A stretch of 64,000 nt of DNA from assembly GCA_900547255.1 (NCBI GenBank), contig URGC01000001.1:308-64307 (forward strand), given 5' to 3'. The position numbers and the translations under genes are program-made. This DNA comes from an uncultured Eubacterium sp. (GTDB lineage Bacteria; Bacillota; Clostridia; Lachnospirales; Lachnospiraceae). Position 1 is the first letter of the stretch, and the number at the start of each line of letters is the position of its first letter. The notes below the pieces were generated by a model. It had not been told where the DNA came from, searched no databases, and worked only from the letters and a program-made list of their open reading frames with translations. Positions 3,940-62,775 of the stretch are shown here, one piece after another.

Positions 3940-4995
3940 ATGCGTAATATTAGTGCAGTTAAGAAGATAAGTGCATGCATAGCACTTGTTTTGCTTACTA
4001 TTGGAACATTTGGATGTAATACCAAGATTACACCATCATATGGATATAATCCAACAGATTATGTCCAGTTAGGTGAATATAAGGGACTGAAATATTCAGT
4101 TGATACAGATGCCATTGAAAAGAAGCTTATCAATGACAGAATTACAAGTGACCAGAAGGATAATATAACATATCAGGAGGTAACATCGAGAGGTGCTGTA
4201 GATACTGATAAGGTTACACTTGATTTCTCTGCTTCTATTAATGGACTTACAGTAGATGGATTCTCAGATAATGATTATGAGCTTGTACTTGGAACAGATA
4301 CATTCTATATTGATGGATTTGTTGATGAACTCTACGGAATGAAGACAGGAGAGACTAAGATTGCACAGCTTGTTGTTCCTGAGACATTTACACAGGCATC
4401 GGAGTATGCAGGCAAGAAGATTGTATTTGAGATTACAATGACTAAGATTGAGCAGCCTAATGTGCCAATGATAACAGATGCATATGTACAGGCACATTTT
4501 GATGTCAATACTGTTGATGAGTACAGACAGAAGATTAAGGAAGAACTCGCTGATTCTATTAATGAGGAGATAGAGGAGCAGACAAAGAATGCAATTCTTA
4601 TCCAGCTTCAGGAGGTCTGCAAGGTTACTGGATATCCAGAGGATTTCCTTAATACTAAGAAGGATGAATATGAGTCATCTATCAAAATGTATTCTCTTAT
4701 GAAGAACCAGACTGTTGATGAGTACTGTCAGGAGAATATGAACATGTCATTTGACGACTATGTTAAGAAGAACATAGCCCAGGAGATGATTATATGTGCG
4801 ATTGCTGAGAAAGAGGGCATCACAGTAACTGAGTATGAGTACAAGGGAGACCTTGAGCAGTTCGCATCTGATAATAACTATGGCGATAAGACAGCATTTG
4901 AGGAAAAATATGGCAAGGACAAGATTGTAGTTGCGATGGTTATGCAGAAGACACAGGATTTTATTATTGAAAATGCAGTAAACACACAGAAATAA
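3940..4995 (+). CDS. Lipoprotein with FKBP-type PPIase/trigger-factor-like domains
   Basis: ORF 3886..4995. GGAGG RBS before ATG 3940. Signal peptide with lipobox LTIGTFGC. Trigger factor FKBP-like and C-terminal-like segments are present. Confidence 0.6.
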   Translation: MRNISAVKKISACIALVLLTIGTFGCNTKITPSYGYNPTDYVQLGEYKGLKYSVDTDAIEKKLINDRITSDQKDNITYQEVTSRGAVDTDKVTLDFSASINGLTVDGFSDNDYELVLGTDTFYIDGFVDELYGMKTGETKIAQLVVPETFTQASEYAGKKIVFEITMTKIEQPNVPMITDAYVQAHFDVNTVDEYRQKIKEELADSINEEIEEQTKNAILIQLQEVCKVTGYPEDFLNTKKDEYESSIKMYSLMKNQTVDEYCQENMNMSFDDYVKKNIAQEMIICAIAEKEGITVTEYEYKGDLEQFASDNNYGDKTAFEEKYGKDKIVVAMVMQKTQDFIIENAVNTQK

Positions 4996-5026
4996 ATGAG
5001 GGGGAAATTCCCCCTCATTTATTTAT
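4994..5026. terminator. Bidirectional intrinsic terminator between convergent genes
   Basis: Hairpin AAATGAGGGGG-AAATT-CCCCCTCATTT with A/T tracts on both sides. Confidence 0.6.
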
Positions 5027-5029
5027 AAG

Positions 5030-6406
5030 TTATAGGCGGTTTACGGCGTCCAGGGCCAGGGCGGAGCGTTCGCATTCGTTGGCGGAAAGGGTTATCTGCC
5101 AGCAGAGGGGGCTGCCTTTCATGTATTTGGCGGCATAAGATAAGCCGTTTGTTTTTTCATCAAGAAATGGCTTATCAATCTGGTTTGGGTCGCCTAGGAG
5201 GATGATTTTGGTGTCTTCGCCGGCTCTTGTGATTATGCCTTTGACCTGATTAGGGGTCATGTTCTGGGCTTCGTCTATTATAAGATATGTTTTGGCGATA
5301 GAACGTCCTCTGATAAAGTTAAGGGCTTCTGTCTGGATAATTTCTCTTTCAAATATCTCTGAAATCTTATCTGAAAGTTCCTGCTCGTCTTCGTAGCGGC
5401 TTTTAGTGTCAGAATCAAGAATTTGTTCGAGATTATCAATTACAGGGCGCATAAGCGGCGCAATTTTGTCCTGTTCACTGCCTGGGAGGAAACCTATGTC
5501 ATCATCAAATTGGGCATTAGGGCGGCACACTATAATTCTTCTATATTCATTGGTTGGATTGTTAAATACTTTCTCCATTCCGACAGCGAGAGAGTAGAAG
5601 GTTTTGGCAGTACCAGCCATACCTTTTATGATTACGAGAGGAGCTTTCTTGGCACATGTCATAAGTGCCTCCTGAACGAAATATTGTCCGGCATTGCGTG
5701 GAGATATTCCATATGGCTTGCTTTTCTTGTATTCGAGGGGAACGACCTTTTTGCCGTGGACACATCCGAGAAGAGTTTTCTTAGGAGACTGGTCAGCGCG
5801 CAGAGTTACGAATTCATTTTCAAATAATTCCGGGTGGGAAACATTGCCTTCTTCGTCTGTCTGATATAAATGTTCTGTTTTAATACCATTTTTCTTAAAT
5901 TCCTTGATGGAGTCTTCTGGAATGTAGAGTTCAATTCGACCAGTGTAACCTGCATCTTCACTGCTTATCTGTTCTGTTATGAAATCCTCAGCTTTTATTC
6001 CGATAATCTGGGCTTTAAGTCTTAGTACGATATCTTTCGTAACAAGCACAATCTGTTTATCTGGAAATTCATCGGAAAGTCCTTTGCATACCATAAGAAT
6101 TCTGTTGTCCGGTTTGTCATCAGGAAGGTCTTGTGGGAGTGATACATTGACATAATTTTTCTCAATTTTGATAGAACCACCATTTTCAGTGGCAATGCCA
6201 GCAAGAAGGTCGCCTTTGATGCGGTATGATTCAAGAATTCTAACGGTGGCTCTTGCATTTGCCCCTTTATCTCCGTCCGATTTTTTCAATCCGTCAAGTT
6301 CCTCAAGAACTACAAGCGGTATTACAATATCGTTGTCATCAAAACAGTTGGTAGCATAAGGTGCCTGGATAAAAACATTAGTGTCGATTACATAAGTTTT
6401 TTTCAT
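5030..6406 (-). CDS. PhoH-like ATPase with N-terminal PIN domain (YlaK family)
   Basis: N-terminal PIN motif VIDTNVFI. PhoH P-loop GMAGTAKT and conserved C-terminal PhoH region. RBS AAGGAG. Confidence 0.85.
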   Translation of the reverse strand: MKKTYVIDTNVFIQAPYATNCFDDNDIVIPLVVLEELDGLKKSDGDKGANARATVRILESYRIKGDLLAGIATENGGSIKIEKNYVNVSLPQDLPDDKPDNRILMVCKGLSDEFPDKQIVLVTKDIVLRLKAQIIGIKAEDFITEQISSEDAGYTGRIELYIPEDSIKEFKKNGIKTEHLYQTDEEGNVSHPELFENEFVTLRADQSPKKTLLGCVHGKKVVPLEYKKSKPYGISPRNAGQYFVQEALMTCAKKAPLVIIKGMAGTAKTFYSLAVGMEKVFNNPTNEYRRIIVCRPNAQFDDDIGFLPGSEQDKIAPLMRPVIDNLEQILDSDTKSRYEDEQELSDKISEIFEREIIQTEALNFIRGRSIAKTYLIIDEAQNMTPNQVKGIITRAGEDTKIILLGDPNQIDKPFLDEKTNGLSYAAKYMKGSPLCWQITLSANECERSALALDAVNRL

Positions 6407-6418
6407 AGATTGTCTCCT

Positions 6419-7078
6419 TTAAATCATGCGTTGACCATTGATTACAAGCCAGAACTGGATTCTAAGTTTCTCAGCAGCTTTGCGGCAGAGAACCATTCGC
6501 TCTAAGAATATTTCAAAATAATCCATTACAGTACACATAGATGTATCAATTTTGATTGTCAGCTCAATATGTGAGTCTTTCACAATCTCAACTATACTTT
6601 CTTTAACTGAATAATTAACCCGGTCATGAATGTCAAATGTAGAAATGTCCTGATTGCGGACTCTTGTGTATCGCACATCTGTCTTATCTGCGATGATAAG
6701 AGCGGCGGCAACAGCGTTAACCGGATAAGCTGTTGACTCGTCATGATTGCCTATAGCTGCGATAACAGTTGCAATATCTTCTGAATCAGCTCCCATCTTG
6801 TCTAATATTCTGAATGCCATGACAGCACCAGACTGTGCATGGTCAATTCTGTTGATAACATTGCCGATATCGTGAAGATACCCGGCAATTCTTGCAAGCT
6901 CAGCCTCTCTGTCGCTATATCCAAGAGTTGTAAGTATATCCCCGGCAAGCTTTGAAACCTTATTAACATGAGAAAAGCTGTGATCCGTATAACCGAGAGC
7001 AATCAATGATTCATCCGCTTTCTCGATATACGTATTCACAGCATTATTTTTCTTAACATCTTCAAAAGTAACTTTCAT
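6419..7078 (-). CDS. HD-domain phosphohydrolase
   Basis: H..HV...LHDIGN HD motif. Co-operonic with the PIN-PhoH gene, which lies 12 nt downstream. Confidence 0.7.
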   Translation of the reverse strand: MKVTFEDVKKNNAVNTYIEKADESLIALGYTDHSFSHVNKVSKLAGDILTTLGYSDREAELARIAGYLHDIGNVINRIDHAQSGAVMAFRILDKMGADSEDIATVIAAIGNHDESTAYPVNAVAAALIIADKTDVRYTRVRNQDISTFDIHDRVNYSVKESIVEIVKDSHIELTIKIDTSMCTVMDYFEIFLERMVLCRKAAEKLRIQFWLVINGQRMI

Positions 7079-26640: not shown

Positions 26641-26700
26641 TAAAGGGAAAAATCTCCTGCATGCTGGCACCGGCTATAGGCTGTGGCGGTCTGACCGTCC

Positions 26701-26920
26701 CACAGTCTGACAGCGGTATGCGCATATATAATTAATTCAGGTCCTTTGTGTCTAGCTACTCTAAGGCTGGCACGACAAAGCTTATTAAATCCGCCTCGCT
26801 AAAAACGCACTTCGTTTGGACGTTTAGCAGGCGGATTAGCTTTTGTCTAGCACCAGCCTAAGAGTAGCACGACAGTCGTCAGGAATTAATTATATATACG
26901 CATACCGCTGTCAGGCTGTG
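26701..26920. repeat. Copy 1 of a ~220-bp structured palindromic intergenic element
   Basis: Outer 38-bp inverted repeat (26701-26738 / 26883-26920) encloses a ~145-bp imperfect palindrome. It shares identical GGCACGACAAAGCTT and GCTAAAAACGCACTTCGTTTGGACGTTTAGCAG runs with 57079-57297. Confidence 0.7.
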
Positions 26921-26993
26921 GAAGTTTTACTTGTATTTTTGGTGGGAAGTCTTTATAATCTAGGTATGTATACTTTGACGCGGAGGATGGCGT

Positions 26994-37655: not shown

Positions 37656-37716
37656 TACAATTAATAATTAAAAATATAAGCATGGGCATATTATGTATTA
37701 TTAATGTGCTCATGCT

Positions 37717-37778
37717 TCAGACTGTAGACAAAGTGGCACTAGGATTCGCATCTTAGTGCCACTTTGTCTACAGTCTGA
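37717..37778. repeat. Long perfect palindrome (25-bp stem, 12-nt loop) between convergent glyA and argG
   Basis: TCAGACTGTAGACAAAGTGGCACTA / TAGTGCCACTTTGTCTACAGTCTGA. Confidence 0.6.
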
Positions 37779-37780
37779 AA

Positions 37781-44267: not shown

Positions 44268-44274
44268 AGGAGGA

Positions 44275-44355
44275 AATTCTCACGCCTGCCTGTGCCAAGC
44301 CATGGCGGCTGACAGCTATTTCCGCCACGGCTTGGCACAGGCAGGCGTGAGAATT
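44275..44355. repeat. Long near-perfect palindrome (34-bp stem, 13-nt loop CTGACAGCTATTT), no U-tract
   Basis: AATTCTCACGCCTGCCTGTGCCAAGCCATGGCGG / CCGCCACGGCTTGGCACAGGCAGGCGTGAGAATT with one mismatch. Confidence 0.6.
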
Positions 44356-44455
44356 TATAGCGGTTTGCGTTGTCAAGAGCGGTGAGATGTAATATAATGA
44401 AAATACTTTTATGACAGTAGATAATACATAGGTTAATTTGGAGGATAAGATTAGG

Positions 44456-47166: not shown

Positions 47167-48495
47167 ATGAGGAAAGGGAAAATCCGTTTATCTTCGTCAC
47201 AAATGATTATTCTTGGCTTTGCCGCTGTTATATTGTTGGGTGCTGTTTTGTTAATGCTCCCAATATCCAGTAAAACAGGTACTGTTACCCCATTTTTAGA
47301 TTGCTTATTTACATCAACATCCGCAGTATGTGTCACAGGATTAGTGGTCTTTGATACTGCTGCCCATTGGACAGTGTTCGGGCAAAGCGTGATTCTTGTG
47401 CTGATTCAAATCGGCGGCATGGGTGTTATTACTGTGGCGGCAGCAATTACGATGGCTGCCGGAAAGAAAATATCCCTGATGCAGAGAAGCACCATGCAGG
47501 ATGCGATTTCCGCACCGCAGGTAGGTGGTATCGTTCGATTCACAGGATTTATTCTGAAAGGTATTGTGATTATCGAGGCTTTGGGCGCAGTCATTATGGC
47601 TACTGTGTTTATCCGGGATTATGGCTTCGGAGAAGGACTCTGGATGGCAGTATTCCACTCTATCTCGGCCTTCTGCAATGCCGGTTTTGACATCGTGGAT
47701 GATGGTGTTCTGTTCAATTCCTTGATGGGATATGCCGCTGACCCTGTTATCAATCTGACAATTATGCTGTTGATCATCATTGGTGGACTTGGCTTTTTGA
47801 CATGGAGAGATATATACACCAATGGCATCCATATAAAGCGATACCGTATGCAGAGTAAGGTCATTCTCGCTGTTACAGCGGGATTGATACTGGTTCCGTC
47901 GATCTATTTTTTCTTCATTGAATTTGCGCATCTGCCTTTTACCGAACGCTTATGGGGAGCCTTGTTCCAGGCGGTTACGCCGAGAACGGCAGGCTTCAAC
48001 ACAGCGGATTTGAATGCAATGAGCGAAACCGGGCAGATGCTTACATCACTGCTTATGATTATTGGTGGTGCGCCCGGTTCCACGGCTGGCGGCATGAAAG
48101 TTACCACTTTTGCGGTAATGGTATCGGTTGCTGCGGCAGTCTTTCAGAGACGTCAGAATGGCCGTTTCTTTGGACGCCGCATCGATGATGAAACCGTGAA
48201 AAATGCGGCGACGGTATTTCTTATGTATATTTCGCTATTCCTTATCGGCGGCATGGCAATCAGCAAGTTGGAAAATCTGCCAATTATGGCTTGCCTGTAC
48301 GAAAGCGCATCAGCGGTTGGAACAGTCGGTCTGTCGCTGGGTATCACCCCGGAGCTTGGCACAGTCAGCAAGCTGATTTTGATTGCACAGATGTATATTG
48401 GCAGAGTTGGCGGTCTGACGCTGATCTTCGCAACACTACCTGCAACTAAAAACACATTATCAAGGCTTCCTGTCGAGAAGATCTCGGTAGGCTAA
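47167..48495 (+). CDS. ktrB: Potassium uptake protein, TrkH/KtrB family
   Basis: ORF 47125..48495. AAAGGAGG precedes ATG 47167. Multi-TM protein with repeated GGxGG-type selectivity-filter-like glycine motifs (e.g. IGGMG, IGGLG). Confidence 0.9.
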   Translation: MRKGKIRLSSSQMIILGFAAVILLGAVLLMLPISSKTGTVTPFLDCLFTSTSAVCVTGLVVFDTAAHWTVFGQSVILVLIQIGGMGVITVAAAITMAAGKKISLMQRSTMQDAISAPQVGGIVRFTGFILKGIVIIEALGAVIMATVFIRDYGFGEGLWMAVFHSISAFCNAGFDIVDDGVLFNSLMGYAADPVINLTIMLLIIIGGLGFLTWRDIYTNGIHIKRYRMQSKVILAVTAGLILVPSIYFFFIEFAHLPFTERLWGALFQAVTPRTAGFNTADLNAMSETGQMLTSLLMIIGGAPGSTAGGMKVTTFAVMVSVAAAVFQRRQNGRFFGRRIDDETVKNAATVFLMYISLFLIGGMAISKLENLPIMACLYESASAVGTVGLSLGITPELGTVSKLILIAQMYIGRVGGLTLIFATLPATKNTLSRLPVEKISVG

Positions 48496-48514
48496 ACGCA
48501 AGGAGGTATCTGCT

Positions 48515-49162
48515 ATGAAATCGATATTATTAATTGGACTTGGACGATTTGGAAAATTTATCGCCATGAAGCTGCACTCAATGGGCCACCAGGTTATGGC
48601 CGTAGACACGAACGAAGAACGGGTAAACAATGTACTTCCCTATGTTACCAATGCGCAGATTGGGGACAGCACAAATGAGGAATTTCTCGCTTCTTTGGGC
48701 ATCAGCAACTATGACTCCTGCATTGTTGCGATTGGTGACAACTTCCAAAATTCATTGGAAACAGCTTATCTTTTGAAGGAGCTGGGAGCAAAAAAAGTCA
48801 TCGCCCGTGCGTCCCGTGAAATACAGGAAAAATTTCTGCTTCGCAATGGTGCGGATGAAGTGGTGTACCCCGAAAAGCAGTTGGCAGCATGGACAGCGAT
48901 CCGTTGCTCCTCTGAGCATATCCTGGAGTACATTGAGCTGGATGACGAATATTCCATCTTTGAATTGGAAATCCCGGCTGATTGGAAAGGAAAGACCATT
49001 CTCCAGTTGGATATTCGGAAAAAATACGGAATCAATATCCTCGGCATCCGTGAAAATGGAAAGCTGAATATGAGTATTACACCGGATATCGTACTCGGAT
49101 GCAATAAATCAATTCTTGTGTTGGGGCATGAAAAAGCCATTCACAAGTGTTTCCGTATCTAA
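48515..49162 (+). CDS. ktrA: Potassium uptake protein, TrkA/KtrA NAD-binding subunit
   Basis: Rossmann GLGRFG motif, RCK_N plus RCK_C domains. Confidence 0.9.
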   Translation: MKSILLIGLGRFGKFIAMKLHSMGHQVMAVDTNEERVNNVLPYVTNAQIGDSTNEEFLASLGISNYDSCIVAIGDNFQNSLETAYLLKELGAKKVIARASREIQEKFLLRNGADEVVYPEKQLAAWTAIRCSSEHILEYIELDDEYSIFELEIPADWKGKTILQLDIRKKYGINILGIRENGKLNMSITPDIVLGCNKSILVLGHEKAIHKCFRI

Positions 49163-49204
49163 CATATCGGACTTTTATCGTTCTTGGCAGAGGAGGTGTT
49201 TGCG

Positions 49205-49738
49205 ATGAAAGATCTGTTCTTAATTCTAATCCTGTTAGCCACATTTGCATTTGGCTACTATGTTGTAGCAAAATTCGAGGACTTCATCGATGAAAACCAA
49301 CGACGGGTTGCAGATGGAAACCGAAATGGTCGCTGCCACATACATATTGCATCAGAAAATCCGATATTGTTTAATTCCGTTGCATCTGCGTTGGAAAACT
49401 GTTCAGAAGCAGCTCCCTATATTGAGTTTTTCCTCAGCTGCGGTAAAAGAAAATACCTCTTGGATAAGCTTTTGAACGAGAAAATTGATATTCTTCTTTT
49501 ATCGGAGGAATGTTCTGAACAATTAGAGCCGCAATACGCTTATGCCTTGATTCCGTGTGAGGAAAAGGAAGGATATACAACTTCGCTTGGGCTTTCAGTT
49601 GAAAATCTGGATAAGGAAAAATGGATTCGTGTTGTCTGGAAAAAGAGTCTGAAATCCAAAAACCGTGACCGTGTAATTGCGGCATTGGAAATGGAACACT
49701 ACAGACTTAAATGTGGCTATGCCGATTATCTGGATTAA
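49205..49738 (+). CDS. Hypothetical membrane-anchored protein
   Basis: ORF 49184..49738. GAGGAGG precedes ATG 49205. Single N-terminal TM followed by a cytoplasmic domain of unknown function. Confidence 0.4.
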   Translation: MKDLFLILILLATFAFGYYVVAKFEDFIDENQRRVADGNRNGRCHIHIASENPILFNSVASALENCSEAAPYIEFFLSCGKRKYLLDKLLNEKIDILLLSEECSEQLEPQYAYALIPCEEKEGYTTSLGLSVENLDKEKWIRVVWKKSLKSKNRDRVIAALEMEHYRLKCGYADYLD

Positions 49739-49806
49739 ATGTTTACATCTCTCGGTAGAAAAAACGGCTCTGATATGATAAAATTATTTAATCGGAGGTG
49801 AGGATC

Positions 49807-51777
49807 ATGAACAAACAGAATAACATGAACAGCAAGCAGGATCATATCCTCGCATGTCTGTCATCCGCTCCGTCCAATGCAAAAATCATTCGTACCGCCG
49901 CAAGAATGGCAAAGGCCTTTGGCAGCCAGTTTACTGCACTATTCGTGGAAACACCGGATTTTGCTGTGGCTACCGACGAAAACAAAAGGCGATTAGAGGA
50001 AAACCGCAAGCTGGCTGAACAGCTTGGGGCAAATATCGAAACGGTATACGGTGAAGATATTCCGTACCAGATTGCTGAGTTTGCCAGCATCTCCGGTATC
50101 ACACGAATCGTTTTGGGACAAAGCTCCGTTACCCGAAAGCATCTGTTTGGAAAGCCGACACTGACGCAGCTTCTGCTGTCCTATGTGCCGGATATCGATA
50201 TTCATATTATTCCGGACAAAGCAGCGGATACGACCTATCATCCCAAAAAGGCAAGGGAATTCCATCACGAACGAATCGTGAAAAACACCATAAAGAGCGC
50301 TCTGATTCTGTTTGCGGCAACATTGCTCAGCTTGCTGTTTCACAAGATCGGCTTTACCGATGCAAACATTATCATGGTGTATATTCTTGGTGTGTTGCTG
50401 ACATCGGTTGCGACTTCCCATCAGATATACAGTCTGATTTCCTCCATAGCCAGCGTCTTTATCTTTAATTTCCTGTTTACAGTACCCCAGTTCTCGCTGA
50501 CGGCTTACGGCACCGGTTATCCGGTGACCTTCGTCGTAATGTTTTTAACGGCGTACATTACAGGCACATTGGCCATTCGATATAAAGAGCAGGCACGGCA
50601 ATCGGAGAAAATTGCCAAACGCACAAAGATCCTCTTTGATACGGATCAGCTTTTGTCCAGGGCGGAAAACAAAGCTGCCATTCTGCAAACCGCCGGACAG
50701 CAGATCAATAAGCTACTTGGGCGAAATATCATTATTTTTGACCATGAAAATGGGCAATTATCTGAACCGATGCTGTTTCCATTGCAGGGACAGCGGTTTT
50801 ATGATGAGGAAGCAGAACTGGAATCGGCAAACTGGGTTCTTCAGAACAATCACAGTGCCGGGGCTACCACGGAGCGATTCCCGGATGCACAGTATCTGTA
50901 TCTTGCCATTCGTGTCAATAAGCGTGTATATGGTGTCGTGGGCATTGATTCCATGGCAGGGGCTTTGGATGCATCGGAGCATAGCATCCTGTTGTCCATT
51001 CTTGGTGAAGTGGCGCTGGCCTTGGAAAACGAGAAAAACGCCAGAGAAAAAGAAGCTGCGGCAGTTCTGGCAGAGAGTGAACAGCTTAGAGCCAATCTGC
51101 TGCGAACCATTTCCCACGACTTACGTACTCCGCTGACAACCATTTCCGGCAATGCCGGCAATCTTCTACACAACAGCCACAGCTTTGACGAAGAAACCAA
51201 ACAGCAGATTTATGGGGATATTTATGATGACGCCATGTGGCTGACCAATCTGGTGGAAAACCTTCTCTATTCCACCCGCATTGAGGAAGGCCGCATGGTG
51301 CTGAAAACTTCTCCGGAGTTAGTTTCTGAAATCATTGAAGAAGCGATGCAGCACATTCGTCCCAAGGCCAAAACCCATTCCGTCACCGTTGTTTGCGAGG
51401 ATGATTTCCTGCTGGTGGAGGCAGATGCGAAGCTGATCGTGCAGGTCATCATCAATCTTGTGGACAATGCGTTAAAATATACTCCTGCCGGTGCTTCTAT
51501 TTCTATAAACGCAGAACGCAAAGAAAGCGTGGCAGAAATAAACATCACTGATAACGGGAATGGAATCAGTGATGCTGAAAAAGAAAAAATCTTTGATAAA
51601 TTCTATTGCGGCGAACATAAAATAGCGGATAATCGCCGCAGCCTCGGGTTGGGACTTTATCTATGTAAGACTATTGTCGAAGCACACGGAGGAACCATCT
51701 GTGTCACAGATAAACAGCCCCATGGTGCTGTTTTCACCTTTACCCTTCCGCTGGAGGAGGTTACTTACCATGAGTAA
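49807..51777 (+). CDS. KdpD-like sensor histidine kinase lacking the N-terminal KdpD sensing domain (USP-TM-GAF-HisKA-HATPase)
   Basis: GGAGG precedes ATG 49807. USP-like N-terminus. H-box HDLRTPL. N, G1 and G2 boxes present. Confidence 0.8.
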   Translation: MNKQNNMNSKQDHILACLSSAPSNAKIIRTAARMAKAFGSQFTALFVETPDFAVATDENKRRLEENRKLAEQLGANIETVYGEDIPYQIAEFASISGITRIVLGQSSVTRKHLFGKPTLTQLLLSYVPDIDIHIIPDKAADTTYHPKKAREFHHERIVKNTIKSALILFAATLLSLLFHKIGFTDANIIMVYILGVLLTSVATSHQIYSLISSIASVFIFNFLFTVPQFSLTAYGTGYPVTFVVMFLTAYITGTLAIRYKEQARQSEKIAKRTKILFDTDQLLSRAENKAAILQTAGQQINKLLGRNIIIFDHENGQLSEPMLFPLQGQRFYDEEAELESANWVLQNNHSAGATTERFPDAQYLYLAIRVNKRVYGVVGIDSMAGALDASEHSILLSILGEVALALENEKNAREKEAAAVLAESEQLRANLLRTISHDLRTPLTTISGNAGNLLHNSHSFDEETKQQIYGDIYDDAMWLTNLVENLLYSTRIEEGRMVLKTSPELVSEIIEEAMQHIRPKAKTHSVTVVCEDDFLLVEADAKLIVQVIINLVDNALKYTPAGASISINAERKESVAEINITDNGNGISDAEKEKIFDKFYCGEHKIADNRRSLGLGLYLCKTIVEAHGGTICVTDKQPHGAVFTFTLPLEEVTYHE

Positions 51778-52471
51778 ATTTCAAATATTGGTGGTTGAGG
51801 ATGACGCACCTGTGCGAAATCTGATCACCACCACACTAAAAGCCAATGACTATCGATTTATCACAGCCGGAAGCGGCGAAGGGGCTGTGGCGGAAGCAGC
51901 ATCCCACAATCCTGATATTGTTTTGCTGGACTTGGGGCTGCCGGATATTGACGGCGTAGAAGTGATCCGCCGTATTAGAAGCTGGTCCAATATGCCGATT
52001 ATTGTCATCAGCGCACGAGCCGAAGATAGCGATAAGATTGAAGCACTGGATGCCGGTGCGGACGACTATCTGACAAAACCATTTTCCGTAGAGGAGCTGC
52101 TGGCTCGTCTGCGAGTGACCCAGCGCCGTCTTGCTTTGATGAAAAATACCAATAATGAGCAGGCATTCTATCAAAATGGGCTGCTCCGCATTGACTATTC
52201 CCTGGGCTGCGCTTATCTGGGCGGCGATGAGTTGTCTCTGACCGCTATGGAATATAAGCTGCTTTGCCTGTTTGCACGAAACACTGGCAGAGTGCTTACA
52301 CACAAATACATCCTGCAAAATGTATGGGGCAGCAGTTGGGAAAACGATATTGGAACGCTGCGTGTATTTATGGCAACGCTGCGTAAAAAGCTGGAGAAGG
52401 CACCCGGCTCTCCACAATACATCCAGACGCATATTGGGGTAGGCTATCGGATGCAGAAAACCGATGAATAA
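51770..52471 (+). CDS. kdpE: OmpR-family response regulator (KdpE-like)
   Basis: ORF 51674..52471. GGAGGAGG precedes ATG 51770, which overlaps the kinase stop. REC plus winged-helix domains. Confidence 0.9.
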   Translation: MSKFQILVVEDDAPVRNLITTTLKANDYRFITAGSGEGAVAEAASHNPDIVLLDLGLPDIDGVEVIRRIRSWSNMPIIVISARAEDSDKIEALDAGADDYLTKPFSVEELLARLRVTQRRLALMKNTNNEQAFYQNGLLRIDYSLGCAYLGGDELSLTAMEYKLLCLFARNTGRVLTHKYILQNVWGSSWENDIGTLRVFMATLRKKLEKAPGSPQYIQTHIGVGYRMQKTDE

Positions 52472-55866: not shown

Positions 55867-57048
55867 ATGAACGAATTTCAGTTAAAGTATGGATGTAACC
55901 CTAACCAGAAGCCTGCCAGAATATTCATGGCAGATGGAAGTGATCTTCCAGTTGAGGTTTTAAATGGCAGACCAGGATATATCAACTTCCTCGATGCGTT
56001 CAACGGATATCAGCTTGTAGCAGAGCTTAAGCGTGCAACAGGACTTCCAGCAGCAACATCATTCAAGCATGTATCTCCAGCAGGTGCAGCAGTAGGTCTT
56101 CCACTCTCAGATGTTGAGAAGAAGATATACTGGGTTGATGAGGCAATTGGGGAACTTTCACCACTTGCGTGTGCATATGCAAGAGCAAGAGGTGCTGACA
56201 GAATGTCTTCATTCGGCGATTTCATATCTCTTTCAGATGTGTGTGATGTGGCAACAGCCAAGCTTATACAGCATGAGGTTTCAGATGGTATCATAGCTCC
56301 AGGTTATGATGATGAAGCTTTAGAGATATTAAAGTCTAAGAAGAAGGGCAATTATAATATTATCAAGATTGACCCAGCTTACAAGCCAGAACCAATTGAG
56401 AGAAAGCAGGTATTTGGTGTGACATTTGAGCAGGGAAGAAATGAATTTGTTATCAACGAAGAACTTCTCTCTAACATGGTTACAGAGAATAAAGAATTCA
56501 CTAAGCAGGCAAAGATTGACCTTATCATTGCGCTTATCACATTAAAGTATACACAGTCTAATTCAGTATGCTACGCTAAGAATGGACAGGCTATCGGTAT
56601 CGGTGCAGGACAGCAGTCAAGAATTCACTGTACAAGACTTGCCGGACAGAAGGCTGATAACTGGTATCTCCGTCAGAATCCTAAAGTTCTTGCACTTCCA
56701 TTCAAAGAAAATGTTGGACGTGCAGACAGAGATAATGCAATTGATTTATATATCGGTGACGAATATGAAGATATTCTTGCAGATGGCAATTGGGAAAGAG
56801 TATTTACAAGCAAGCCAGAAGTATTCACTAAGGAAGAGAAGAGAGCATGGCTTGATGGTAATACAGATGTAGCCCTTGGCTCAGATGCATTCTTCCCATT
56901 TGGAGATAATATTGAGAGAGCATTTAAGAGTGGTGTTAAATATATTGCACAGCCAGGCGGCTCAATAAGAGACGATAATGTTATTGAGGCATGCAATAAG
57001 CATAATATTGCTATGTGCTTTACAGGAATGAGATTATTCCATCATTAA
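55867..57048 (+). CDS. purH: Stand-alone AICAR transformylase domain protein (PurH C-terminal domain only, no MGS/IMPCH domain)
   Basis: AICARFT motifs (KHVSPAGAAVG, C-terminal ...FFPF.D.I). Only 393 aa and lacks the N-terminal cyclohydrolase domain. Confidence 0.75.
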   Translation: MNEFQLKYGCNPNQKPARIFMADGSDLPVEVLNGRPGYINFLDAFNGYQLVAELKRATGLPAATSFKHVSPAGAAVGLPLSDVEKKIYWVDEAIGELSPLACAYARARGADRMSSFGDFISLSDVCDVATAKLIQHEVSDGIIAPGYDDEALEILKSKKKGNYNIIKIDPAYKPEPIERKQVFGVTFEQGRNEFVINEELLSNMVTENKEFTKQAKIDLIIALITLKYTQSNSVCYAKNGQAIGIGAGQQSRIHCTRLAGQKADNWYLRQNPKVLALPFKENVGRADRDNAIDLYIGDEYEDILADGNWERVFTSKPEVFTKEEKRAWLDGNTDVALGSDAFFPFGDNIERAFKSGVKYIAQPGGSIRDDNVIEACNKHNIAMCFTGMRLFHH

Positions 57049-57078
57049 TCTATTGAAATTTTACTGCCGGCAAGAGGC

Positions 57079-57297
57079 GGCTCCCCGCATGGTACAGTGT
57101 GCTGTAATTACCTGCTGGGTTTCCTTGTCTAGTGCCTCTAAGCACGGCACGACAAAGCTTTATTCAAGCCGTCTGCTAAAAACGCACTTCGTTTGGACGT
57201 TTAGCAGACGGCTTATGCTTTGTCTAACACCGCGCTAAGAGACACACGACAAGTCAACATGCAGGTAATTACAGCACACTGTACCCTGCGGGGAGCC
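57079..57297. repeat. Copy 2 of the ~220-bp structured palindromic intergenic element
   Basis: Outer 37-bp inverted repeat (57079-57115 / 57261-57297), unrelated in sequence to copy 1, encloses a core ~85% identical to copy 1. Confidence 0.7.
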
Positions 57298-57328
57298 GGA
57301 TGCTAAAGGTGTAAGCTTCAATGATGTA

Positions 57329-58183
57329 ATGATGGGGATGGAGGTAATGATGGTTATGAAGTGTTCGTTAATTGCGTTTGATTTGGATGGGACGCTGCTT
57401 AATGGAGATGGACATTTGTCAGAGGCTAACAGGAGTGCTTTGATGGATGCAATGGATAAGGGGATTCATGTGTGTATATGTACAGGGAGAGCGTATAATA
57501 CCATTCCAGAGGAATTACTTGGATTTCCGGGGATTGAATATGCGGTTGCCAATAATGGATCATCGGTTTATAGGATTAAGGATGGGTGTAAGCTCAATGG
57601 GCTGTATATTAATAGTGCCTCTGTTGAAAGGATTATTGAGGTTACATCAGATATGGGTGTGGCTTATGAGGCATTTGTTGATGGAGAGGCTTATGCTGGA
57701 AGAGAGTATATAGATGACCCTGTAAGATTTGGAGCTACACAGAAGGCAATTGAATATGTTCAGAAAACCAGAAAGCCAGTTAATTACATTGTTGAATTCA
57801 TATCTGAACATAAGAATGAACTTGAGAGCATGGATATAGTGGTGCCTGGCGAGGATAAGAAAGCCGATATTATATCAAGAATAAAGCAGGTTACAGAGGA
57901 TGTCTATATAACAAGTTCAGTTAAGCAGCTTATTGAGATATCTAATATAGATGGTGGCAAGAGTACAGGACTTAAGTTCCTTGCTGGATATCTTGGCGTG
58001 GAGCGCGAAAATATAGCTGCATTTGGTGACGCTGATAATGACATTGACATGCTCGAATATGCAGGCTGTGGAATAGCAATGGATAATGCAGCCGATAATC
58101 TTAAAGCAGTTGCTGATTATGTGACGACGCATCACAATGATGATGGGGTTGCGTATGCATTTAAAAATATCCTTTGCATATGA
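57329..58183 (+). CDS. Cof-type HAD-IIB family hydrolase
   Basis: FDLDGTLL motif I and a C-terminal GDADND motif. The true start is probably ATG 57350 or 57356, after GGAGG at 57340-57344. Confidence 0.8.
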   Translation: MMGMEVMMVMKCSLIAFDLDGTLLNGDGHLSEANRSALMDAMDKGIHVCICTGRAYNTIPEELLGFPGIEYAVANNGSSVYRIKDGCKLNGLYINSASVERIIEVTSDMGVAYEAFVDGEAYAGREYIDDPVRFGATQKAIEYVQKTRKPVNYIVEFISEHKNELESMDIVVPGEDKKADIISRIKQVTEDVYITSSVKQLIEISNIDGGKSTGLKFLAGYLGVERENIAAFGDADNDIDMLEYAGCGIAMDNAADNLKAVADYVTTHHNDDGVAYAFKNILCI

Positions 58184-62709: not shown

Positions 62710-62713
62710 ATAA

Positions 62714-62775
62714 ATTGCCCCAAGGACTGAGAGGCAGCCAGTTACAGACAGCCTCTCAGTCCTTGGGGCAATTTG
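62714..62775. terminator. Bidirectional terminator with 21-bp stem
   Basis: TTGCCCCAAGGACTGAGAGGC / GCCTCTCAGTCCTTGGGGCAA. The right arm overlaps the last codons of the convergent gene. Confidence 0.6.

Follow-up and report, generated by a model that had tools for sequence, protein, structure and literature searches.

The described elements closest to the long hairpin analysed here are the REP/BIME/REPIN elements, the palindromic MITEs, and the attC sites of integrons. REP/BIME/REPIN elements, which are mobilised by RAYT (an HUH Y1 enzyme), occur in Proteobacteria as intergenic, non-coding, imperfect palindromes that form hairpins, often at the 3' ends of genes. REPINs are doublets that fold into one longer hairpin, and BIMEs are built of two unit types that take turns and face opposite ways. 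Palindromic MITEs (Correia/NEMIS, ERIC/IRU, bcr1, and RUP) are non-coding hairpin repeats of 100-200 bp that are strain-polymorphic and lie in transcribed intergenic DNA, whereas attC sites are imperfect palindromes that conserve structure over sequence and at which foreign genes are found. In addition, a hairpin or terminator is used as a safe insertion site by IS1397 and ISKpn1 (REP loops), by IS1111-attC elements, and by class C group II introns (after terminators). As for the form in which these DNAs act, REP and REPIN units are thought to move as single-stranded DNA (excerpts of PMC3116915 and PMC6006769), and attC sites are described as acting as folded single-stranded DNA, for which the orientation to replication matters (PMC5371416, in excerpt).

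Our subject is the second of two related copies in the window, by which we mean the whole 64-kb stretch of DNA that was analysed. It has the intergenic, non-coding hairpin form of the REP group, can be likened to a REPIN in folding into one longer hairpin, and has relatives in which type-1 and type-2 apex copies stand in opposite orientation, as BIME units do (L163 and L137). However, its unit measures 145-210 nt rather than the 20-40 nt of a REP, the feet of its arms have no common tetranucleotide where REP has one of the GTAG type at its 5' end (sequences read), and it is present in low number (two in 64 kb) instead of tens to hundreds of copies; moreover, its hosts are Firmicutes, and its apex is best conserved rather than the whole unit. 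With palindromic MITEs it has in common the size, the hairpin form, the variation between strains, and the presumably transcribed intergenic setting, yet MITEs have conserved TIR termini and a direct target-site duplication, whereas the element has locus-specific termini, a conserved centre, and no duplication that could be seen. attC sites resemble the element as imperfect palindromes in which structure is kept rather than sequence, and as places with foreign genes. They conserve their outer R''/R' boxes (RYYYAAC / GTTRRRY) around a variable centre; the element does the reverse and lacks the boxes (sequences read). Furthermore, attC sites form dense cassette arrays beside an intI integrase, whereas copies of the element are separated by 30 kb in the window and by 8-90 kb in Mitsuokella. 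The insertion sequences that target hairpins, finally, are autonomous and encode enzymes, while the element is 220 nt long, is itself a hairpin, and contains no ORF. On every defining feature of REP/BIME/REPIN elements, palindromic MITEs, and integron attC sites that could be tested, the element differs from the described kind. We conclude that copy 2 is real and non-coding and belongs to an apparently undescribed family of DNA repeats that form long hairpins in Firmicutes of the gut and rumen.

The outer inverted repeat that had been predicted for copy 2 is real and consists of two 38-nt arms with one mismatch (97% complementary) that enclose 145 nt (Table 1). Folding the region as RNA or as a single strand gives one long hairpin with an energy of -142.7 kcal/mol and a z-score of -16.6 relative to dinucleotide shuffles. 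The outer ~17 nt of its left arm are specific to the locus, as a comparison of arms across copies reveals. Within the core, the left side runs TGTCTAG-TGC-CTCTAAG-CAC-GG-CACGACA up to an apical stem (57166-57180 paired with 57200-57214), after which the right side continues as TGTCTAA-CACC-GCG-CTAAGAG-ACA-CACGACA; its conserved mismatches are the TGTCTAG/CACGACA 2x2 loop, which occurs twice, and an A.A mismatch. The apical motif is a mini-hairpin (AACG/CGTT with the loop CACTT) followed on its 3' side by unpaired TGGACG.

Table 1. Coordinates of copy 2, of copy 1, and of related hairpins in the window
Feature	Position	Strand	Sequence, basis, or remark
Left outer arm, copy 2	57078..57115	.	Inner ~21 nt CAGTGTGCTGTAATTACCTGC like the core-adjacent arm segment of other copies
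Left unpaired junction, copy 2	57116..57125	+	TGGGTTTCCT; family A pattern by eye NGGNCCTTTG
Conserved core hairpin, copy 2	57126..57251	+	Anatomy, fold, and comparison of copies
Apical motif, copy 2	57181..57199	+	AACGCACTTCGTTTGGACG
Right unpaired junction, copy 2	57252..57260	+	AGTCAACAT; family A pattern by eye AGTCGTCAN
Right outer arm, copy 2	57261..57298	.	Inverted-repeat anatomy
Copy 1, same family	26700..26921	+	Between ABC ATPase gene and relA/spoT; apex motif 26805-26822
Plain long hairpin	62712..62774	.	Lachnospira MAG L171 has a family A element in its tip
Short bidirectional terminator-type hairpin, between convergent genes	4996..5029	.	ATGAGGGGGAAATTCCCCCTCAT

Copy 1 has the same architecture, as was originally predicted, with 39-nt arms of its own (26700-26738 and 26883-26921, 95% complementary, 144 nt between) and a fold of z = -14.7 against shuffles. 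A blastn search of the window with the element aligned the core of copy 2 (57126-57251) with that of copy 1 (26749-26874) at 82% identity; the outer arms of the two copies have no sequence in common. Both cores contain the motifs TGTCTAG, CTCTAAG/CTAAGAG, and CACGACA, both carry the same mismatches (the 2x2 loop of TGTCTAG and CACGACA twice, plus A.A), and their 31-nt tip, GCTAAAAACGCACTTCGTTTGGACGTTTAGC, is identical. Between the core motifs lie short variable triplets that differ from copy to copy: those of copy 1 pair completely, whereas those of copy 2 pair with one mismatch each. A family HMM run on the 64-kb window retrieves copies 1 and 2 only, 30 kb apart.

The placing of copy 2 was also predicted correctly: upstream lies an AICARFT (purH-type) gene that ends at 57048, and downstream a Cof/HAD hydrolase gene that starts at 57350, as called on identical contigs. 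An 18-nt tandem pair (GATGTAATGATGGGGATG / GAGGTAATGATGGTTATG, 57323-57358) immediately precedes and overlaps the start of the Cof gene and supplies three in-frame ATG codons for it; the product of the Cof ORF counted from its first ATG is not on record. Between the two copies, positions 48001-52000 have a G+C content of 0.458, compared with ~0.40 elsewhere, and a drop in GC skew.

An open reading frame of 61 aa with a TTG start (57053-57238) overlaps copy 2, so that one could take the ORF for the functional unit and the palindrome for an incidental feature. We regard this as hardly credible, given that no equivalent ORF spans the same part of copy 1, that conservation tracks base pairing rather than reading frame, and that the arm substitutions found in a relative are compensatory in the helix. 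The earlier view of the element as non-coding is thereby upheld. The relative in question is the Lachnospira MAG L171, which matches the window at 93.4% identity across the 3.2 kb around copy 2. Its copy 2 core is identical at 145 of 145 positions, where by our estimate a divergence of 6.6% predicts about ten changes in 145 nt, while about 5 of the 38 positions have changed in each arm, mostly with compensation, and divergence is seen in the spacer on the right-hand side of the element. Compensatory changes thus preserve the palindrome in this relative. At the copy-1 site, a relative with flanks of 88-91% identity has a core that is ~98% identical. Because core identity exceeds flank identity, the core must be constrained at fixed loci. 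A purely selfish element is expected to decay in place; the constraint on the core exceeds what such a decaying insert would show, and its near-perfect conservation between species points to a function for the host.

To see how far the family reaches, we relied on its tip. An exact scan of metagenome contigs for the tip 20-mer gave 116 loci, most of which are one locus of a common human-gut species, where a different hairpin of ~220 nt with the same tip separates a D-Ala-D-Ala carboxypeptidase gene from trmB. When species-representative genomes were scanned for the apical 18-mer ACGCACTTCGTTTGGACG, 47 loci were obtained, of which three are chance matches within coding DNA and the others long hairpins, with Lachnospira, Eubacterium, Blautia, Lachnospiraceae, Mitsuokella, and Selenomonas as carriers. 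These hairpins, again of ~220 nt, have the tip in common between genera, with the apical motif exact on stems that are unrelated. We distinguish family A in Lachnospira (which includes the window copies), family B in Eubacterium sp., family C in Blautia and an uncultured Lachnospiraceae bacterium, and, in Mitsuokella and Selenomonas, the many copies of family D and a further subtype. Since the search itself was made with the apex, part of its apparent invariance is due to ascertainment.

All families are built in the same layers. From the tip outward, the apical motif is followed by a variable stem, an asymmetric internal loop, a stem of 8-13 bp, internal loops with conserved sequence specific to the family, and a variable outer stem. 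Within family A, pairwise alignment extends the homology to ~208 nt in the best pairs (core plus ~32-nt arms; for example, the L156 and L171b elements are 88.6% identical over 175 nt), and therefore only the outermost part of each arm is local sequence. This outermost part differs at every locus, and conservation grows toward the centre. Lachnospira genomes have few copies each. For family D, an HMM retrieved more copies, which have a second tip type, AAACGCGCTYYGCTTGAACG. Copies with variant tips (AAACGCGCTYYGCTTGAACG and TGAACG) lie in L163 (1283-1488, 3491-3689, and 6378-6580), L137 (7404-7598), L153 (1811-2024), and L144 (1868-2065); those in L163 and L137 are inverted, and two sit 70-200 nt from a copy of the first type. 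Three family B copies from metagenomes (L099, L102, and L057) combine a diverged homologue in the left half with the common allele in the right half and could be recombinants or chimeric assemblies. Four metagenome contigs (L113, L117, L106, and L116) end inside the element, which implies that the long palindrome breaks metagenome assemblies.

The family is missing from the catalogues that were searched. None of the 4227 Rfam models matched the window or 18 related loci at the gathering threshold. With a permissive E-value, for which both window copies and one Selenomonas copy were run, the sole match was SSRC8_2, with 21.5 bits against a threshold of 72; it covers the outer stem of copy 2 only, with nothing for copy 1, and was discarded as spurious. 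A plasmid, phage, or virus origin was likewise rejected, as blastn searches of plasmid and phage collections (with the element and with the apex) and a scan of viral contigs returned chance matches only. A literature search retrieved no description of the hairpin family.

Relatives differ in the presence of the element at four sites, and at three of these the outermost bases of its arms belong to a local terminator-type hairpin that exists without it. At the 62712-62774 site, the hairpin of the window and the element-bearing site of L171 have the outer 20 bp of the stem in common, and L171 contains the native tip sequence on both sides as an inverted duplication; a search for further alleles with the gene upstream of 62712 gave the same allele and one contig ending there. 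In Lachnospira sp. L156, the site orthologous to 4996-5029 holds a family A element whose outermost arm (~11 bp) resembles the short hairpin found there in the window.

The copy-1 site is the most varied, with four alleles. The first is a plain terminator-type hairpin with 37-nt arms; the second is the element, which keeps the left arm and loop of this plain hairpin and whose outermost 9 bp (CCACAGCCT/AGGCTGTGG) are already in the plain allele; the third is a clean deletion, in which the whole hairpin is gone between GTC repeats; and the fourth has a defence island of 8.9 kb between two element ends, with the apex and the left module missing. The native hairpin of this site also occurs with its 14-nt loop inverted (GCACGGTCAGACCG vs CGGTCTGACCGTGC, L172/L176 vs window 26680-26700), which looks like a flip between inverted arms. 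The island allele (L180, 10818-19582; GCA_934320905.1, contig CAKRGD010000007.1) codes for a ribbon-helix-helix (RHH) repressor, a C5 methylase together with a type II restriction enzyme, a DUF2806 protein, a truncated primase, AbiJ, and an uncharacterised 339-aa protein that is SIR2-like by eye. Its junctions read ..TGTCTAGCACCAGCCTA|CCTCTG.. and ..CACGGCA|CTAAGAGTAGCACGACA.., in which CTA could be read as common to both. The island was also considered as an autonomous parent of the element and rejected as such, since there is no recombinase or transposase among its genes.

At the copy-2 site, contigs with an identical purH protein fall into two alleles. Three contigs have the element exactly as in the window; in five others, the spacer is 120 nt long and contains a different plain hairpin (32-nt arms, then a T-run). 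As the whole spacer differs between these alleles, the site shows no simple insertion. The suggestion that the element had been inserted into a hairpin loop finds support at the three other sites, with 20, 9, and ~11 bp of local sequence, and fails at copy 2 itself, where the other allele is a different hairpin. No direct target-site duplication was found at the three filled and empty sites with readable junctions, where the flanks are inverted repeats derived from the local hairpin, nor did a defined cleavage site emerge; each difference could have arisen by insertion or by deletion. Plain hairpins of the window at 44274-44356, 37716-37779, and 62712-62774 have unusually long, near-perfect arms of 35, 30, and 31 nt and loops of 13, 4, and 1 nt, respectively, and those at 44274 and 62712 begin with AAAT and end with ATTT. 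Hairpins of this kind also make up alternative alleles at the sites of copy 1 and copy 2. These plain long hairpins may be terminators of the organism, remnants after loss of the element, or both; the gene upstream of 44274 is not on record.

This setting bears directly on the suggestion that copy 2 is the terminator of purH or an insulator between purH and the Cof gene. Its position between co-directional genes would suit such a role, and related copies top terminator-type hairpins whose base and T-run are retained (62712-62774 and the L156 site). Nevertheless, the right arm of copy 2 is followed by GATGCTAAAGG, which has no T-run (that of copy 1 is followed by AAGTTTTAC, a weak terminator candidate), and a terminator scan, whose loop limit of 8 nt would miss the copy 2 hairpin, found none there. 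Strains without the element have a terminator-like hairpin of their own, long but ordinary and with a T-run, so that termination does not depend on the element. Furthermore, terminators are not characterised by a conserved apex or by conserved internal loops, and some members of the family lie between divergent genes. A scan for promoter consensus sequences at or in the element was negative as well. The predicted role as terminator or insulator was not borne out, and we judge it improbable.

A structured RNA, either part of a 3' or 5' UTR or a small RNA, with a stem that would either be cut by RNase III or act as a stabiliser, and with an apex to which a protein or a second RNA would bind, is less easily dismissed. 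The folds are very stable, the covariation is strong, the loops are conserved, and the core is under purifying selection; in addition, both window copies point the same way as the flanking genes, with the motif on the G-rich strand, which is the gene strand, and in Eubacterium the copy immediately precedes trmB and has its orientation. The covariation was quantified in an alignment of 24 distinct Selenomonadaceae copies with 54 predicted pairs and 1284 cells. Compensatory double changes occur in 36 of the 54 pairs, 95.3% of cells can pair (76% in shuffles and ~45% with the partners slid), double-change cells number 250 where 71 are expected, and single-sided changes are rare. Compensatory changes fit structured RNA and folded DNA equally. 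An RNA made from one strand normally tolerates G.U, and an A.C-type cell is a G.U when read on the other strand. By our own tally of pair types, G.U-type cells (26 of 1284) and A.C-type cells (20 of 1284) are equally rare, so that neither strand looks favoured, and this absence of strand preference is what folded DNA, or copying from arm to arm in a DNA palindrome, would give. A strand test per element (RNA folding energy and G.U counts) gave inconsistent results from one genome to the next, and we do not rely on it; energies accordingly offer no consistent asymmetry between strands in favour of RNA. The RNA reading is further opposed by the lack of an Rfam match, by the lack of a promoter consensus at or in the element, and by several Mitsuokella copies that are antisense to both neighbours. 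Taken with the orientation data below, the missing strand preference among transition mismatches speaks against a terminator, an insulator, or a cis-acting form of the processed RNA in the original prediction as the primary role. A structured RNA is possible but rather unlikely, and a terminator or insulator is less likely.

All 11 exact-apex copies of Mitsuokella multacida (CP181253; L127-L163) lie within 248-448 kb of the 2.35-Mb chromosome, on the + strand up to 427 kb and on the - strand beyond. In Mitsuokella sp. WILCCON 0060 (NODE_2; L131-L157), six copies on the + strand are followed by two on the - strand along one contig. In both genomes the switch coincides with a change of the local GC skew from + to -, the skew being computed from 8-kb blocks with weak values. 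Some sites are orthologous between the two species, as L142 and L154 have common flanks. By GC3-based gene calls, the copies of L127, L144b, and L150 point against both neighbouring genes while still agreeing with the local GC skew, and a fixed orientation relative to flanking genes was looked for across copies and not found. Since the orientation in Mitsuokella is independent of genes, it argues against a cis-acting RNA or terminator and for a DNA-hairpin element, and it is compatible with a DNA state linked to replication. The evidence for polarity is, however, weakened by the inverted variant-apex copies (three in L163, one in L137), by L171b, which is inverted and has two tip substitutions, and by the mixed orientation of the copies in a Selenomonas MAG.

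One could go further and see in the element a polar chromosomal DNA signal, be it for fork pausing, for organising the terminus region, or for attachment by a hairpin-specific recombinase. The clustering in Mitsuokella multacida with its flip at the skew change, the same behaviour in the second Mitsuokella species, and the 8.9-kb defence island within one copy-1 allele would all agree with this. On the other hand, the skew values are weak, the variant-apex copies are inverted, Lachnospira genomes have few copies, the defence island lacks a recombinase, and the clustering could reflect local spread, so that we consider such a signal quite unlikely. In a more specific form, which we hold to be doubtful, a conserved protein would read the apex and internal loops on the lagging-strand template, and the hairpin, as a new kind of DNA signal, would serve as a polar, terminus-proximal mark for fork pausing or segregation or as an attachment site for hairpin-specific recombination.

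In Selenomonas, the hairpin is also found inside a larger element. In the MAG of Selenomonas sp. UW_MP_SELEN1_1, it is an internal part of a TIR MITE of ~800 nt with the terminal repeats CGATAAACTGGAA/TTCCAGTTTATCG, copies of which are 86-98% identical (L126, L133, L139-L141, L147-L149, L153, L162, L166, L169, and L170). This MITE has two alternative left modules and a right module of ~360 nt without a match in Rfam, and it carries the hairpin passively; the Selenomonas locus L168 has a solo hairpin without a MITE shell. In L126, a group II intron with a reverse transcriptase/maturase ORF (4757-6574, - strand) ends ~170 nt upstream of the hairpin; a link between the two was rejected as coincidence, the other three Rfam-scanned copies (L133, L139, and L140) having no intron.

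The reading we prefer, which we hold with about even confidence, is that copy 2 is a non-coding foldback DNA element of an uncatalogued family whose members are lodged in the tips of hairpins and are gained or lost between relatives. The element consists of one long imperfect DNA hairpin with a core of 145 bp and arms of ~32 bp, and the family, as found in Lachnospiraceae and Selenomonadaceae, is rod-like, with the apical motif and conserved internal loops set among freely covarying helices. Its members sit in the tips of intergenic terminator-type hairpins, so that their outermost arms are made of local sequence. This anatomy, the membership and carriers of the family, the covariation, the polymorphism between relatives, the nesting in local hairpins, and the conservation of the core at orthologous sites are all shown by the data. 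From the pairing and orientation data, we infer that the foldback element acts, and probably moves, as a DNA hairpin, either in single-stranded DNA at the replication fork or as a cruciform, and that its apex and internal loops are recognised by a putative trans-acting protein. Terminator-hairpin tips may be the target of the element or the sole place where it is tolerated. An added hairpin is least harmful in such a tip, which is also single-stranded upon extrusion, and either could explain the niche.

In short, the family occurs in two classes of Firmicutes, both of them abundant in the human gut and the rumen; neither Rfam nor the plasmid and phage collections that were searched contain it. 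Its pattern of conservation is the reverse of that of ordinary MITEs, with the centre and loops conserved and the ends local, and it marks intergenic sites that differ between strains, one of them with an 8.9-kb defence island inside. If the element acts as folded DNA, it would offer a testable case of hairpin-directed DNA insertion into terminators, in Gram-positive as well as diderm Firmicutes; alternatively, it might be a signal oriented by replication. Were a DNA-hairpin signal the true explanation, hairpin-specific recombination could nest DNA, defence islands included, into the tips of terminator hairpins.
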